The notes beneath the pieces were generated by a model. The model ran no database searches. It was given only the letters and a program-made list of their open reading frames with translations, and was not told where the DNA came from. The position numbers and the translations under genes were made by a program. Positions 14,310-51,499 of a stretch of 64,000 nt of DNA are shown in pieces; positions within the stretch are counted from its first letter, which is position 1; each line of letters starts with the position of its first letter. Origin of the DNA: a virus; the IMG/VR virus record IMGVR_UViG_3300026320_000001, positions 1 through 64,000 of that record; one strand, given 5' to 3'.

Positions 14310-14338
14310 TTGACATTTTTAGGATAATGTGGTATGCT
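14310..14338 (+). promoter_or_regulatory. sigma70-type promoter for the membrane-protein module
   Basis: TTGACA-17bp-TATGCT with extended TG. Confidence 0.65.
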
Positions 14339-14958
14339 ACAATTCTCTGGCAGAAATGTCAGAGATTATACCGTTAAAATGGGTGGAGAAAGGCAGTTTT
14401 ATGTCACCAGATGGTGTTACTCATGTAAAAATATGGAAAACATTTTTTCCTCTCACATTGATTGTAGCTCTAGGCATAGGATTGCTTTGGAGTTGGTATA
14501 TAGCAATGTTCGTTATAATAGGATGGGGATTTCATGGATTTGGAATAGACCCGGATTTAGACCTGAGTGGTTTTAATAGGTCTGAGGCTTTATGGAGTAA
14601 ATTAATTATAACTATTCCATTGATAGGTTGGTCAACATTTTATGCAAGAATATTTCAAAAATGGGGAGGACATCGAAGCATATGGACTCATGGTTTTATT
14701 ATTTCTACTTTTATAAGATTAATGTTTTTTGGACTTCCTTTTTTATGGTGGTTTCGTCAACATTGGATTGATGATTTAACTAGAGAATTTTTTGGTATGT
14801 ACATAGGAATGTCCATATCAGATAATTTACATATAATTGCAGATATGATTACTGGTGAAATGAATTTTTTTAGTAGAATTGGTGGAAAAAATATTTTTTT
14901 GAAAAGAATAATGAAGATTTGGTTCGATTACCCTCCAACAAAAAAGAATGATTATTAA
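14329..14958 (+). CDS. Membrane metal-binding protein (DUF2227/YdjM-like); true start probably ATG 14401
   Basis: GVTH, PDLDL, HRSIWTH and HIIAD motifs plus TM segments. Confidence 0.7.
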   Translation: MVCYNSLAEMSEIIPLKWVEKGSFMSPDGVTHVKIWKTFFPLTLIVALGIGLLWSWYIAMFVIIGWGFHGFGIDPDLDLSGFNRSEALWSKLIITIPLIGWSTFYARIFQKWGGHRSIWTHGFIISTFIRLMFFGLPFLWWFRQHWIDDLTREFFGMYIGMSISDNLHIIADMITGEMNFFSRIGGKNIFLKRIMKIWFDYPPTKKNDY

Positions 14959-14984: not shown

Positions 14985-15875
14985 ATGAATCAAAATTTTG
15001 GAAACAATAAACAAAACATGTCCGTAAGTGAAAAAATTGAACAAGATAAAGTTATAAAAAAAATAAAAGATGATAAGGGTTTGATTGGTGATTTTAAACG
15101 TTTTCCTTTATTATATCTTTCTTTAGGTGTAGCTGGAATTTTAACATTTTTTGATGCTGTATGGATTGCATGGACAGCAACAGCACCAGTATCAAACACA
15201 ATTGTAAGGCTTTTATTGGTTTCAGGATTAGGAAGTTTGATTGGCACAGGATTTGTTTCGTTTGGGGAATTCGCTACAGCAAATTGGGAGCGCAAATTTT
15301 TTCACAGAGAAAAAGATAATAAAACTCAATATTTTGTTTCAATTTCAATGTTAGTTCTTAGTGGAATTTTTTCTGCTGTAACAGCCTATGCTTCAACAAA
15401 TATTTTGGCAGTTATTTTTGGTGTTTTCTCAGAACATTTACAAATTCCTGATTGGGCGCAAAATTGGCTTATTGGATATGTGCCTCTCGCAATTTTTGCG
15501 AATGTAATTTCAACTTTTGTTTATAGAAATAAAAGTAGAAGTTCTGAAATTAGAAGACAATTAAGCATGATAGAAATGGAAAAAACAGCCGATGCCGATG
15601 AAAGAATTTTAAAAGCTGAAATGAATGCAAGAGCTAGCATAGCAGAACATCAAGCATTAGCATTTGAACAAGAAATGGAAGAAAGAGCTAAACATATTGG
15701 TAGAACTATGGGTGTTCATAGAGCAAAAGAAGCATCTAAAGGATTTGACTTTCCTCAACAAAATGAATCTTCTGAGCAAGAAAAAGTTTATCCAATAAAT
15801 ACAGAAGATTCTAAATTAAAATTAAACGAAATAAAAGAGGATTCAAAAAGAAGTCCAAATTTTCCGAACAGCTAA
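14985..15875 (+). CDS. Multi-pass membrane protein with C-terminal coiled coil
   Basis: About four hydrophobic segments followed by an A/E/R-rich helical tail. Confidence 0.65.
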   Translation: MNQNFGNNKQNMSVSEKIEQDKVIKKIKDDKGLIGDFKRFPLLYLSLGVAGILTFFDAVWIAWTATAPVSNTIVRLLLVSGLGSLIGTGFVSFGEFATANWERKFFHREKDNKTQYFVSISMLVLSGIFSAVTAYASTNILAVIFGVFSEHLQIPDWAQNWLIGYVPLAIFANVISTFVYRNKSRSSEIRRQLSMIEMEKTADADERILKAEMNARASIAEHQALAFEQEMEERAKHIGRTMGVHRAKEASKGFDFPQQNESSEQEKVYPINTEDSKLKLNEIKEDSKRSPNFPNS

Positions 15876-15907
15876 CACAAAAAGATATAACGTTTGACAA
15901 TGAAAAT

Positions 15908-16162
15908 GTGTTAGCGTTATTTATGGACGCTTTCAAAGAAAAACATTTAATTCCTGAAAAATCTAATTTTATAGAAATAAAATCAACAAAAAAGAAAATT
16001 GGTGATAGATTAGAATGGCGAAAAAACAAAAAAGGTGATTTAATAGGAGTTTGTTGGAGAAAAAGAAATTCAGAAAGAAAGGCTACTAGATACGTTGGAA
16101 AAAGAAAATCCCCAATTGATTTTCAACGTTTTCAAAAGGTGTATAATGAAAAAAATAGATGA
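15908..16162 (+). CDS. Small basic protein, possibly nucleic-acid binding
   Basis: K/R-rich, RLEWRK...WRKR...RYVGKR. Confidence 0.4.
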   Translation: MLALFMDAFKEKHLIPEKSNFIEIKSTKKKIGDRLEWRKNKKGDLIGVCWRKRNSERKATRYVGKRKSPIDFQRFQKVYNEKNR

Positions 16163-16244
16163 AGATAATATCGAATTGGAGGTTGAAGTGCCAGAAACAG
16201 ACCAGATGTTATTTACGGCACTATTTTCTCCTGCCGAAGAACTG

Positions 16245-16809
16245 TTGGCAAGAGGGAGAATGAAAATAGTAACCATTGGCGATAATATTGTTGGAATGGT
16301 TATTCTTAATGCCAAATATGATGAATCTGTTGGCTTTGTTGACCTTCTAAACAAAGATAAAAAAACTGTTGGCAATGAGTTGGTAGAAAAAAATCAAATA
16401 AATGCCAATGAAAGAAGTCAAATATGATGAATAAAAAAGTTATTTTATGTTTATTTTTAGTGTTGGCAATAGTGTTGGCATGTCAAGTACCAGATATTAG
16501 CCTAAATAATACTGCCAATGGTCAAAACAATGGTCAAAATATTGCCAAAACAACCCCTGAAATCATTGGCAACCCATTTAATCTAAGTGTTGGCAATGCC
16601 ACAGTCCGGGCTTTTCCCGTTGGCCTAAATATAAGAGATGATGCTAGTGCCAATGCTACAGTGTTGGCAACTGCACCAGATAATTCAACCGTAAAAATTA
16701 CTGGAATTTTAGCCAATGGTTGGGTTTCTCTTTGTTGGCAAAAAATTTGCGGATTTGCCAATGCTAGGTATCTTAGCCAATAGATTGAAAAAGAGATAAC
16801 TAAAGCCAA
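16245..16809. repeat. Dense cluster of 20 TTGGC/GCCAA motifs in both orientations
   Basis: 11 TTGGC and 9 GCCAA counted by hand in 565 bp. Confidence 0.85.
16424..16783 (+). CDS. Lipoprotein with bacterial SH3 domain
   Basis: Signal peptide with VLAC lipobox; GLNIR...GWV...GFANARYL SH3b pattern. Confidence 0.75.
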   Translation: MMNKKVILCLFLVLAIVLACQVPDISLNNTANGQNNGQNIAKTTPEIIGNPFNLSVGNATVRAFPVGLNIRDDASANATVLATAPDNSTVKITGILANGWVSLCWQKICGFANARYLSQ

Positions 16810-16824
16810 TAGTTATCTCTTTTT
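16788..16824 (+). terminator. Intrinsic terminator
   Basis: AAAAAGAGATAACTA / TAGTTATCTCTTTTT inverted repeat after the SH3 gene. Confidence 0.75.
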
Positions 16825-16833
16825 ATTTTAACC

Positions 16834-16862
16834 TTGACATTTAGGTTTTAATGTGGTAATAT
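16834..16862 (+). promoter_or_regulatory. sigma70-type promoter
   Basis: TTGACA-17bp-TAATAT with extended TG. Confidence 0.7.
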
Positions 16863-16886
16863 TGTTGAAAATTTGAAAAGAGGTAA

Positions 16887-17303
16887 TTGTCAATGACCAA
16901 TATTTCCACCATAAGAAGTTTAAAATCACAATCAAAAAATTGTTATTATTGTGGATATTATATTGTATTCAAAGAAGATTTGACCGTTGACCATAAACTT
17001 CCTATTTCTAAAGGTGGAAAAACAAATAGAAAAAATTTAGTAGTTTGCTGTAAAGGCTGTAATGAAGAAAAAGGTTCAATGACAGAAATTGAATTCTTCA
17101 ATTATATGAAATATAAAGAAAATTTAAAATATAAATATGATTACGATGAATTGACAAATCAAATGCTAAAAATTAAAGATATTTTTAAAATTATTGGACG
17201 CGGTTCATTCAAATTGATTGACAGTGAATCTGGAATTCATCTTCATAGAAAAATTAGAGCGATAAAGATTGTGAGAAAATTTTATGCACTTCAAATGTAT
17301 TAA
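16887..17303 (+). CDS. HNH endonuclease
   Basis: CYYCG...TVDHKLPISKGG...NLVVCCKGCNEEKG. Confidence 0.88.
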   Translation: MSMTNISTIRSLKSQSKNCYYCGYYIVFKEDLTVDHKLPISKGGKTNRKNLVVCCKGCNEEKGSMTEIEFFNYMKYKENLKYKYDYDELTNQMLKIKDIFKIIGRGSFKLIDSESGIHLHRKIRAIKIVRKFYALQMY

Positions 17304-17443
17304 TAATTCAGAACGTGAAGATATATTAACCTTGAATAAAATATATTTAGGATATTTTGATGACCAAAATATTGATTCAATTTATATTGATGAATGTGAT
17401 AATGGTATTCGTGGATACTTTAGTTTAAATAGATTTGAGGTGA

Positions 17444-17893
17444 TTGATGAAGAATAAAATACTTGTTTTATCAAGAAAAGTTGCTGAAGGTTATGATTGG
17501 TATGGTAGAGATATTGCAATCATATCTGTAACAGACCCAAATCAACCATCGGCTAAATTAAATTATTTTGAGGATAAGATTCTAAGACTTCAATTTCATG
17601 ATGTAGACAAAGATATGAAAATGTGGACTCCAAATGGAACTGTACGCATATTTACAATAAATGATAGTCAAGTAAAAGATATTGTTCAATTTGTTGATAA
17701 ATATTTTTATAATGTTGATGAATTTGTTATTCACTGTGAAGCTGGAATATCGAGGAGTGCAGGAATAGCCGCCGCCATTGCAAAATATATTTATCTTGAT
17801 GATACAGAATATTTCAAGAAGTATATTCCAAATAGAACTGTTCACCGTTTAGTATTGAATGAATTTTATAAGCTAAAAGAAACGATAATTTAG
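17444..17893 (+). CDS. Cys-based protein tyrosine/dual-specificity phosphatase
   Basis: HCEAGISRS (CX5R) P-loop; FHD general-acid loop. Confidence 0.85.
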   Translation: MMKNKILVLSRKVAEGYDWYGRDIAIISVTDPNQPSAKLNYFEDKILRLQFHDVDKDMKMWTPNGTVRIFTINDSQVKDIVQFVDKYFYNVDEFVIHCEAGISRSAGIAAAIAKYIYLDDTEYFKKYIPNRTVHRLVLNEFYKLKETII

Positions 17894-17897
17894 GAGA

Positions 17898-18995
17898 ATG
17901 AAAATGACCGATAGGCCAATGGCAACACTTAGAACTGTAAATAATAAATATCCTATTCCTGAAAAGGATAGGATTGAATTGATTCAGGTAGATGGATGGC
18001 AAGTAATTTCAAAAAAGGATGAATTTGAAATTGGTGATATGTGCATATATGCTGAACCAGATTCTATTTTTCCTGAAATACCAGATTTTGAATTTCTTCG
18101 TCCTAAAAAATTTCGTATTAAAACTATGAAGATGGCTGGAGTTATTAGTCAAGGCATTGTTTTTCCATTATCAATTCTCCCCCTCCGCAACAAGAAATAT
18201 GTTCTTGGCGAAGATGTTACGGAATTGATTGGTATCACAAAATATAAAAGTGAACCAGATAATTCAATTCCACAACCAACATGGATGAAAAATCCAATTG
18301 TTAAAAAACTTTTGAGATATAAAATTTTTAGAACAATTCTTTTGCCAAATAAAGAATATAAAGGATTTCCAAAATTCATTTCTAAAACAGATGAAGAAAA
18401 TGTTCAAAATTTACCATATTTATTTTCTGAAGAATTTAAAAACGTTCCATTTGCTGTTCGTGAAAAAATAGAAGGTCAATCAGGAACGTGGTTTCTTCAA
18501 AGAAAAAAGAATTGGTTTGGAAAAGAAATTTTTGAATTTGGAGTTTGTTCAAGAAATATTCGTAAATTCAAAAAAGATAATTCATCATTTTGGAAAGTTG
18601 CCATAAAATATAATATTGAAAATATTCTAAAAGAATTAATTGGTGATAAAAATGAATGGATTGCCATTCAGGGTGAATGTGTTGGCCCCGGCATTCAAGG
18701 CAATATCTATAAATTAAATGATGTTGATGTTTATATGTTTAATTATATAGAACCAAAAGGAAAAATGGATGATAAAATAGCTGAAGTTGTTATGAATTCA
18801 TATAGCATTAGATGGTGTCCTTTAATTGATAATGAATATTATCTTCCATCAACAGCAAATGATGTTCTTGAATATTCAAATGGTACATCGCTTTTATATA
18901 ATACTGACCGTGAAGGATTGGTATTTCGCAATTACGAAAAAAATATTAGCTTCAAAGCACGTTCACCTAAATATTTATTAAAATCTGATACATAG
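17898..18995 (+). CDS. ATP-dependent RNA ligase, Rnl2/DRB0094-like
   Basis: N-terminal OB-like domain (DRIEL, EPDS, ISQG), KTDEE, EKIEG adenylation motif, QGE, REGLVFR, SFKA. Confidence 0.85.
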   Translation: MKMTDRPMATLRTVNNKYPIPEKDRIELIQVDGWQVISKKDEFEIGDMCIYAEPDSIFPEIPDFEFLRPKKFRIKTMKMAGVISQGIVFPLSILPLRNKKYVLGEDVTELIGITKYKSEPDNSIPQPTWMKNPIVKKLLRYKIFRTILLPNKEYKGFPKFISKTDEENVQNLPYLFSEEFKNVPFAVREKIEGQSGTWFLQRKKNWFGKEIFEFGVCSRNIRKFKKDNSSFWKVAIKYNIENILKELIGDKNEWIAIQGECVGPGIQGNIYKLNDVDVYMFNYIEPKGKMDDKIAEVVMNSYSIRWCPLIDNEYYLPSTANDVLEYSNGTSLLYNTDREGLVFRNYEKNISFKARSPKYLLKSDT

Positions 18996-50992: not shown

Positions 50993-51499
50993 TTGAAGAT
51001 TTTGAAGAACTTTGTTTTAGGTGTTGTGTTGTTATTTTCTGTGATTGGCTATAATGTATATGCCGCTCCATTATTTCAACCTTCATTAGTTTTAGCTCAT
51101 CATGATATTGGAAATGGTTCTTGTCAAGAACAATATGTGAATGAAAATGCTGTTGGAAATGGTGAATGGTTTATTGGTGCTTGTCCCGATGTAACTCCAG
51201 TACCAACCGATACATCAACCGTTGTGCCAACCGATACAGATACTCCAGTCGTGACAGATACTCCAGTCGTGACAGATACTCCAGTCGTGACAGATACTCC
51301 AGTCGTGACAGATACTCCAGTCGTGACAGATACTCCAGTCGTGACAGAAATTGCAACTTTTATTGCAGACCATTCACCTCGTAAATATAAGTGTTGGGCG
51401 GCAAAATGGTTTGGATGGGGAAATGGCCCTCTTCCTGTTGATTGCAGATGGCCTGATAATATGCCACAAAGTCCAATTCATGATGGATGGAATGATTAA
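50993..51499 (+). CDS. Secreted protein with (TDTPVV)6 linker
   Basis: AGGAG RBS, TTG start, signal peptide ending VYA, Pro/Thr repeats between two small Cys-pair domains. Confidence 0.7.
   Translation: MKILKNFVLGVVLLFSVIGYNVYAAPLFQPSLVLAHHDIGNGSCQEQYVNENAVGNGEWFIGACPDVTPVPTDTSTVVPTDTDTPVVTDTPVVTDTPVVTDTPVVTDTPVVTDTPVVTEIATFIADHSPRKYKCWAAKWFGWGNGPLPVDCRWPDNMPQSPIHDGWND
51236..51348 (+). repeat. Perfect 18-bp tandem repeat x6 (ACAGATACTCCAGTCGTG)
   Basis: Directly visible; encodes TDTPVV. Confidence 0.95.

Follow-up and report, generated by a model that had tools for sequence, protein, structure and literature searches.

The locus and its operon

We studied a cluster of twenty copies of the pentamer TTGGC, written in either orientation (TTGGC or GCCAA), between positions 16245 and 16809 of a stretch of phage DNA. 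The stretch, referred to here as the window, is the first 64 kb (64,000 nucleotides) of the IMG/VR record IMGVR_UViG_3300026320_000001, and the phage itself is named G000 in the comparisons with other genomes. The complete record is 147,693 bp long, with 28.5% GC, and its ends overlap by 128 bp, from which it follows that it was assembled as a circle. The genes up to about 85 kb are on the plus strand and cover early and replication functions, with 21 tRNAs, RNA-repair enzymes, a primase-helicase, and a DNA polymerase; from 85 kb onward the genes are on the minus strand and include those of the tape measure, the tail, and the terminase. The array is located in the early/replication half.

The sites lie in a single operon of the plus strand, bracketed by a promoter-like site at 14310 (TTGACA-17-TATGCT with TG) and by a terminator hairpin at 16793-16819 with a 9-bp stem, a 9-nt loop, and a T run. 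The operon starts with the gene of a DUF2227 membrane protein (14310-14958, promoter-like site included). It is followed by the gene of a 296-aa protein (14985-15875), in which the hydropathy scan predicted about four transmembrane (TM) segments at residues ~40-180, continued by a charged, coiled-coil-like tail of low complexity; this is the product of the 0 frame. In the -1 frame, an extension with a small basic domain runs across the end of this gene (15863-16162, the frame being open from 15815). The part of it after a GTG codon is what a preliminary description of this DNA had called the basic protein 15908-16162. Then come ORF A (16146-16427), which encodes an acidic protein of 93 residues, and ORF B (16424-16783), which encodes a predicted lipoprotein of 119 residues whose signal peptide ends in LAC; they carry 6 and 13 of the sites, respectively. 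The next promoter-like site is found at 16834, and the genes downstream of the operon encode an HNH endonuclease, a phosphatase, and an RNA ligase.

The match of ORF B to SH3_3 was weak (E 7.6e-5) and under the cut-off, and a search for it among 5.8 billion proteins returned only itself. No IMG/VR loci were retrieved with ORF B or with the 296-aa membrane protein as queries. The latter and its nine positional counterparts had no Pfam match at E <= 1 beyond chance-level ones, and no FtsK/SpoIIIE ATPase domain.

The sequence of G000 is present in soil metagenomes of four studies, and the assembled contigs from those soil runs are identical to the window wherever they overlap with it. These contigs gave no variants, read ends, or expression signal, and no RNA run was listed among the holders of the sequence. 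No DNA match to positions 15000-18000 was found in the phage collection. The large terminase of G000 shares 35-40% identity with its counterparts in SPbeta-like and Thomasclavelia phages.

The site array and its selection at the DNA level

All the positions and orientations given in the preliminary description were exact: there are 11 copies of TTGGC and 9 of GCCAA within 16245-16809, with spacings of 12-59 bp. The 64-kb window contains 140 copies of the motif, as compared to 91 ± 10 in dinucleotide shuffles. Over the whole genome the count is 250, which amounts to about 0.96 per 565 bp; similar densities are not present throughout the genome, the runner-up stretch of 565 bp having only 6. The Poisson probability of the cluster is ~4e-20, uncorrected. 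The k-mer scan of the full genome that had been proposed as a check was carried out blind to the motif with all 5- to 7-mers, and the array came out as the second strongest 5-mer cluster, below a glycine-rich coding repeat at 87.2 kb.

The preliminary description had also held that protein repeats could not explain the copies, and the analysis of the codons bears this out. TTGGC is read as LA, V/I-G, or CW, and GCCAA as A-N or A-K and once as S-Q, so that three reading phases and two orientations are used; the last site, as claimed, falls within the loop of the terminator hairpin. When both proteins were kept fixed and their synonymous codons were redrawn according to the codon usage of the genome, 3.3 ± 1.5 copies were obtained, with a maximum of 10 in 5000 redraws, against the 19 observed in the two ORFs. 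The motif is borne by rare codons: GCC accounts for 9 of the 19 Ala codons of the two ORFs (11% in the genome) and GGC for 6 of the 13 Gly codons (7% in the genome). Taking into account this codon choice and the excess over the synonymous redraw, the array is under selection at the DNA level, against codon preference. It is a clear natural case of strong selection of this kind overriding codon preference within genes.

The flanks of the pentamer also contain information, namely, A at -4, any base except A at -3, a pyrimidine at -2, a purine at -1, and A at +5. The extended site of G000 is approximately A-S-Y-R-TTGGC-A-A-T, present in both orientations and irregularly spaced. Helical phasing was calculated for four arrays and gave R ~0.53-0.58 near 10.3-10.7 bp, other periods being equal in three of them (combined p 0.017); this phasing is weak and inconsistent, and we do not use it as support. 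A literature search for the motif returned primer-type matches only.

A reading of TTGGCA as a sigma-54 promoter element (-24/-12) was considered and rejected. The -24 element of sigma-54 promoters reads TGGCA, its GG and the GC of the -12 element are exactly 10 nt apart, and such promoters have a single orientation upstream of genes. The pair at 16463/16475 is off by one base and the other sites have no TTGC partner; moreover, half of the sites are inverted and within ORFs.

Two other repeats of the genome were noted. The strongest k-mer cluster, CCACC/GGTGG with 27 copies per 600 bp at 87.1-87.9 kb (L002, minus-strand ORF 87024-87845), probably marks a glycine-rich or collagen-like structural protein. 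At 51209-51370 of the window there are about 7-9 copies of CCAGTCGTGACAGATACT, an 18-bp in-frame tandem repeat, which was discarded as a related array because it is an ordinary coding repeat.

The adjacent domain and the recurrence of the array

The domain encoded just upstream of the array has its conserved core at residues ~65-115 of the translation of window:15815-16159. A phmmer search with the 115 residues of this translation against 1.84 billion representative proteins detected 13 small homologues, in which R, E, W, R, G, L, G, R, Y, V, G, and R are invariant or nearly so. The AlphaFold model consists of three strands and a C-terminal helix, with a pLDDT of ~90 in the core. The domain profile corresponded to no Pfam family and to no sequence of the PDB. 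Solved structures of the AP2/integrase arm-binding type, a DNA-binding fold with three strands and a helix, were considered as possible relatives; Foldseek comparison of the model with the PDB gave nothing at E <= 0.001, and an exhaustive VIA-align search gave a best Z of 3.4, with unrelated proteins. A language-model search pointed to DUF6788 (score 0.86, weak) and a structure search of the Atlas to IS1634 transposases, both of which are leads only.

Apart from G000, eight loci (L027 to L034) carry a clear homologue of the domain. The array is present in nine of nine loci when G000 is counted, with 9-23 sites over 500-900 bp, on or around the domain gene. The eight other loci have a GC content of 46-57% and share no DNA except for 249 bp between L030 and L031, so the array is found at 28% and at 57% GC alike. 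Three of the loci were fetched by exact-protein look-up of the homologues. In L027 (46.5% GC) all 11 sites, within 540 bp, read GTTGGCA; in L028 (52.6% GC) the same is true of 9 out of 9, copies being also found in an intergenic stretch (669-929); and L029 (53% GC) has nine sites in 590 bp and zero in the remaining 1.2 kb. As a test of prediction, five further loci were chosen by protein similarity alone and scored for the array afterwards, and in all five it was centred on the domain. GTTGGCA was seen in 17 of 19 sites of L030 and in 14 of 15 of L031, GCCAACA in 17 of 19 of L032, and TGCCAA in the 13 sites of L034, while the array of L033 was present but weaker. Pooling of the 153 sites gave W-S-Y-G-TTGGC-A-n-T, with 82 forward and 71 reverse copies at spacings of 6-167 bp.

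The co-occurrence strongly supports the array as the set of binding sites of the adjacent domain, and the basic protein 15908-16162 looks like its cognate binder. The earlier proposal of a protein-binding array overprinted on coding sequence is in this way sustained both by the codon redraw and by the recurrence beside domain homologues in eight loci of very different GC. It was also noted that in L027 and L034, where strand 2 of the domain reads GVAF and GVVF, base -2 of the site is mostly C, and that it is T where the domain reads GVCW, L033 being ambiguous; this may be a covariation between the protein and its site.

The most divergent copy of the domain (22% identity) is that of L022, and this locus has no array. 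GGTTCAA is enriched there; it was rejected as an array, the copies being the two arms of a hairpin past the slippery site described below. Homologues of ORF A are found in L022 and L029, with Y-[DE]-E-[SV]-G in common, and SH3 homologues sit after them in both, L029 keeping the gene order domain, ORF A homologue, and SH3 protein. It had been anticipated that homologous loci might keep the proteins and lose the motif. This is what happens in L022, which has homologues of ORFs A and B without TTGGC, and not in the eight loci L027 to L034, which keep the motif. Considering these eight loci and the divergence of the L022 domain, this loss does not overturn the interpretation; it indicates that the ORFs as proteins do not need the motif and that the array is superimposed on ordinary genes in the G000 lineage.

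These loci also allow us to judge whether the array could lack any function at the DNA level, being a by-product of protein repeats, of local composition, or of a recent duplication. Some copies do match a conserved peptide, S-V-G in the ORF A homologues of G000 and L029 and E-V-G in L022. However, the codons that L022 uses for this peptide, GAA GTG GGA, do not contain the motif, and a by-product would have to account for the outcome of the codon redraw, for copies in three phases and two orientations that extend to noncoding DNA (the terminator loop of G000 and the intergenic stretch of L028), and for arrays at both extremes of GC content. We find this explanation hardly credible.

Overlap with the membrane-protein gene and a candidate frameshift

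In the ten loci in which the upstream gene is visible, G000 included, the domain or extension is encoded in the -1 frame, overlapping that gene at its 3' end. This conserved overlap involves, in nine loci, a full ORF with multiple TM segments; the contig of the tenth, L028, contains no more than the final 58 residues of the product. In the membrane proteins accessible to scanning, the TM segments are predicted within the N-terminal half. The ten loci include L024 and the related genome G001, whose extensions are not clear homologues of the G000 domain. The overlaps are located, among others, at L011:12583-13059(-) for G001, L022:7055-7348, L024 ~5847, L027:4041-4508, and L028:157-669.

The membrane-protein gene has a slippery heptamer, A_AAT_TTT, in frame at 15857-15863 of the plus strand, 19 nt short of its end, and we propose this heptamer as the site of a -1 frameshift; past it, the -1 frame of G000 is open for 101 codons up to 16159. 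In-frame heptamers of the X_XXY_YYZ type are found in eight loci (G000, G001, L022, L024, L027, L028, L030, and L032). G001 has AAATTTT at the same distance from the gene end, with 159 open -1 codons, and L022 has A_AAT_TTC with 97; the heptamer is A_AAC_CCT in L024, L027, L030, and L032 and C_CCA_AAA in L028. Where the full length could be measured, the open -1 frames have 97-170 codons. Across the heptamer, the contigs from other runs do not differ from G000, which rules out a homopolymer error confined to one assembly. Hairpins starting 2-7 nt past the heptamer reached z -5.1 in G001, -4.5 in L022, and -2.2 in L027. The one of G000 (15871-15915 of the plus strand, 9-bp stem, 27-nt loop, starting 7 nt past the heptamer) is weak taken alone and is only a possible stimulator of frameshifting.

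On the basis of these sequences, a programmed -1 frameshift is a candidate mechanism for joining the multi-TM protein to the small basic domain. The fusion, of ~392 aa, is proposed because the domain has no convincing start of its own and, read in frame -1 behind a canonical heptamer, spans the stop codon of the gene for a four-TM, coiled-coil protein. The same features support the view that some of the domain is produced as the C-terminus of this protein. A frameshift with this outcome, the addition of a DNA-binding domain to a membrane protein, is not known to us; the literature was not searched specifically for one. There is no -1 overlap in L019, L020, L021, L023, and L025, in which the membrane proteins continue in frame into their C-terminal parts; these read as helix-turn-helix-like by eye, and HTH_Tnp_1 was weakly matched in L019 only (E 0.16).

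The conserved overlap is also relevant to a reading in terms of transcriptional control, according to which the domain would be a regulator and the array an oversized operator, a roadblock, a region of silencing nucleation, or a titration sink. Autoregulation through sites near the gene of the regulator itself is common; the sites are within the domain's own operon, between its promoter and its terminator, and isolated sites with high scores occur here and there in the rest of the genome. However, 9-23 sites in 500-900 bp are far above the needs of an operator, their number is conserved over nine loci, and they are mostly within or downstream of coding sequence and not at promoters. The 63 sites of at least 11 bits outside the array are all single, with no second cluster, and the conserved link, in the -1 frame, to a multi-TM protein would have no obvious role. 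Control of transcription is thus an unlikely function for the array.

Related loci with other motifs

The only related genome in IMG/VR is G001, whose terminase is 56% identical to that of G000; L017 is the same phage as G001. No TTGGC cluster exists in G001, and BLASTP between the counterparts of the two genomes (ORF A, basic ORF, lipoprotein, and membrane protein) gave no significant similarity. Syntenic loci were located with DUF2227 homologues as anchor; the DUF2227 profile had no match in the collections of genome contigs and metagenome contigs. At the syntenic position of G001, after DUF2227 and a membrane protein of 353 aa, there are ~8 copies of AAWCTACTGG in three reading phases (L011:12455-13005(-)). 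After the membrane-protein gene of other loci, we found ~16 copies of AGAAC/GTTCT (AGAACG/CGTTCT), mostly noncoding, in L020 (L020:9554-9900), ~8 copies of AAAGTTTT/AAAACTTT in an intergenic gap of L021 (L021:7911-8010), and 8 copies of GTACA in L019 (L019:9285-9688). Two of the corresponding C-terminal parts were tested, the extension of G001 and that of L020, and neither is homologous to the domain family of G000. The motif swaps where the C-terminal domain differs, and the array is kept with the domain, which is the pattern expected of a binding domain and its site evolving together.

Other features of these loci were observed. The whole record of G001 has RTTGGCA ~2.8 times as often as its reversed control (51 versus 18), without any cluster, and contains dense AT-rich arrays, namely, TAAATAA 22 times at ~51.8-52.0 kb (L013), beside the terminase region, and ACATATA 10 times at ~38.3 kb (L012). 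In L020, five copies of GTTGCTAACA are found within 90 bp of an intergenic gap (L020:5375-5466). A homing-type endonuclease follows the array position in both genomes, HNH in G000 (16887-17303) and read by eye as GIY-YIG/T5orf172-like in G001 (L011:11980-12441(-)); this may be a coincidence of a variable region.

The swap of the motif with the domain would also be seen if the array were a replication origin with iteron-like sites, the domain, possibly membrane-bound, being the initiator or an organiser of the origin. In lambdoid phages the origin iterons are inside the initiator gene and their specificity covaries with the initiator, and classical iterons are direct repeats of 17-22 bp, regularly spaced, beside an AT-rich unwinding element. 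The array of G000 resembles the lambdoid iterons in being on or next to the gene of its putative binder. Its locus is in the early/replication half of the genome, and phi29 offers a case in which replication is organised at the membrane, through the membrane proteins p1 and p16.7 (PMC4974454). Nevertheless, the sites are of 10-12 bp, their orientations are nearly equal in number (82/71), and their spacing is as irregular as 6-167 bp. The domain, besides being tiny, lacks a part for loading a helicase. The GC skew, suggested in the preliminary description as a sign of an origin or terminus, is flat at 16 kb, and no DnaA boxes or adjacent unwinding element were identified, the latter without having been specifically tested for. 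An origin at this position is quite unlikely, in our opinion.

The array was also compared with packaging (pac) recognition sites and with loading sites of DNA translocases. P1 has its pac site, made up of clustered hexamers, within a coding region, and in L027 the gene of the small terminase is ~1.8 kb from the array. TraB of Streptomyces, in turn, recognises direct 8-bp repeats of the plasmid clt region (PMC4447253). In G000, however, the terminase genes are at ~119-124 kb, ~40 kb away around the circle, and neither an ATPase nor a translocase domain is present in the membrane protein, which makes this role very improbable.

Proposed mechanism

Considering all these data, we propose that the array is a set of anchor sites in cis, bound by a DNA-binding domain that a frameshift appends to a membrane-tethered protein, and we give this reading, built on sequence comparisons, a probability of about 0.6. 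According to the proposal, the ~20 sites of 10-12 bp, with GTTGGCA as their core, would be bound by the small basic domain encoded just upstream. Part of the ribosomes would slip to the -1 frame, producing a membrane protein of ~392 aa with a sequence-specific DNA-binding domain at its cytoplasmic C-terminus. By binding to the array beside its own gene, the fusion would tether that part of the phage genome at the cytoplasmic membrane. That the locus is held at the membrane is what we infer from this arrangement. If the protein is inserted into the membrane while transcription and translation are going on, the domain would emerge near its own sites and act preferentially in cis; that it does act mainly in cis is speculation. 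As for the purpose of the tethering, we can only guess at retention or segregation of the genome, organisation of replication, or some other role. Of the four classes that the preliminary description had offered, the centromere-like one (or an anchor) fits best and an origin is possible, while packaging and translocase loading are unlikely.

Several observations weigh against the proposal. The identification of the domain as DNA-binding comes from its charge, its conservation, and its co-occurrence with the array, given that no Pfam, PDB-sequence, or confident fold match was obtained. The array of G000 starts 83 bp past the stop codon of the domain, off its gene, and there is no clear array in L023, L024, and L025. 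Regarding the frameshift, L031, L033, and L034 have no canonical heptamer in the final 90 nt of the upstream gene, and heptamers near gene ends are common in the AT-rich G000, where 37 of 174 ORFs have one and 6 of the 174 have also a long open -1 frame. The hairpins are not significant in G000 (z -0.7) and L028 (z +0.8). The membrane protein of G000 has no detectable similarity in sequence to its counterparts in L027 or L032, so that only the architecture is common to them. The GTG at 15908 is a possible start of an independent protein of 84 aa in G000, and the domain of L027 has an ATG with a plausible ribosome-binding site; the fusion may therefore be partial or absent in some lineages, and a free domain is possible.

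A wider version of the proposal can be put forward tentatively, as a possibility that we regard with some doubt. In it, a widespread and hitherto undescribed centromere or genome anchor would consist of one gene and no NTPase: an integral membrane protein, provided with a sequence-specific DNA-binding domain by programmed -1 frameshifting, would during its own synthesis lock the neighbourhood of its gene to the membrane through 10-20 overprinted sites, the pair of domain and site would be swappable, and the frameshift rate would set the ratio of anchor to scaffold.

If the proposal is correct, it would add a new family of DNA-binding domains, conserved in phage genomes from 28% to 57% GC, with a defined site of 10-12 bp that has GTTGGCA as its core. 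Programmed frameshifting would acquire a new role, that of providing a membrane protein with an optional DNA-binding end. The locus would also represent a compact attachment of a viral genome to the cell envelope, which bears on the organisation of replication, on persistence in the carrier state, and on partition without ParA-type motors. Moreover, a small domain together with an array of short sites could be used as a portable means of attaching DNA to membranes.

Comparison with known systems

The closest likeness in the way of working is to RacA-ram of Bacillus subtilis, RocS of Streptococcus pneumoniae, and the single-protein partition system Par of plasmid pSK1, which combine in one protein DNA binding, oligomerisation through a coiled coil, and anchoring to the membrane or pole, and which bind repetitive centromere-like sequences and position DNA without a dedicated NTPase (PMC11500499). 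The likeness is functional only. These proteins have an N-terminal winged helix, a central coiled coil, and at the C-terminus a DUF536 or amphipathic helix, a disordered anchor, or a DivIVA contact, whereas in G000 the order is reversed, the anchor consists of four predicted TM segments, and the binder is an unrelated small strand-rich domain without a Pfam family. No winged helix, DUF536, or other domain of RacA, RocS, or pSK1 Par was found by Pfam in the membrane protein or its extension. In G000 the domain is apparently added by the -1 frameshift and the sites are packed in ~600 bp on coding sequence, in which it also differs from them.

In the phi29 protein p16.7, a coiled coil is combined with a DNA-binding domain at the C-terminus. 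The protein is an early integral membrane protein that ties the replication of phage DNA to the membrane (PMC4974454). Its DNA binding is without sequence specificity and it contacts the terminal protein, while what we propose for G000 includes a cognate site array; no sequence relation was found between p16.7 and the G000 protein. To our knowledge, neither a cognate site array nor a frameshift has been described for p16.7.

In the membrane-associated TraB of Streptomyces, it is the C-terminus that recognises the direct 8-bp clt repeats, those of each plasmid being recognised by its own TraB (PMC4447253). TraB and clt provide a precedent in that a plasmid encodes the membrane-associated protein by which its own short repeats are recognised. 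TraB, however, is an FtsK-like hexameric ATPase that pumps DNA, as opposed to the G000 protein of 296 aa (~392 with the extension), which has no ATPase domain.

The lambdoid origins, with iterons inside gene O, and P1, with pac hexamers inside pacA, have binding repeats that overlie coding sequence and are located in the gene of the binder or next to it. The former are four regular iterons of 19 bp and the latter seven hexamers tied to methylation, unlike the arrays of the G000 type, which have 9-23 sites in both orientations, with irregular spacing, and a membrane-linked binder. We know of no precedent for such an array overprinted on genes, a point for which the literature was not searched. 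The -1 frameshifts of the tail chaperones G/GT and of dnaX are similar to that proposed for G000 in having a heptamer near the end of the upstream frame, a hairpin in some lineages, and two products with a common N-terminus.

With respect to type I partition (ParABS), neither a ParA nor a ParB domain was matched in G000: PF13614 (AAA_31), matched in 14 of 14 control genomes, and PF02195, the N-terminal domain of ParB/Spo0J, had no match in the complete genome. The locus is not a member of the RacA/RocS/pSK1 Par, p16.7, or TraB families, since its domains, their order, and its anchor differ and the defining features that were tested are lacking. In our view, the description that suits it best is that of a centromere-like or DNA-anchor system whose pair of domain and site is newly defined.

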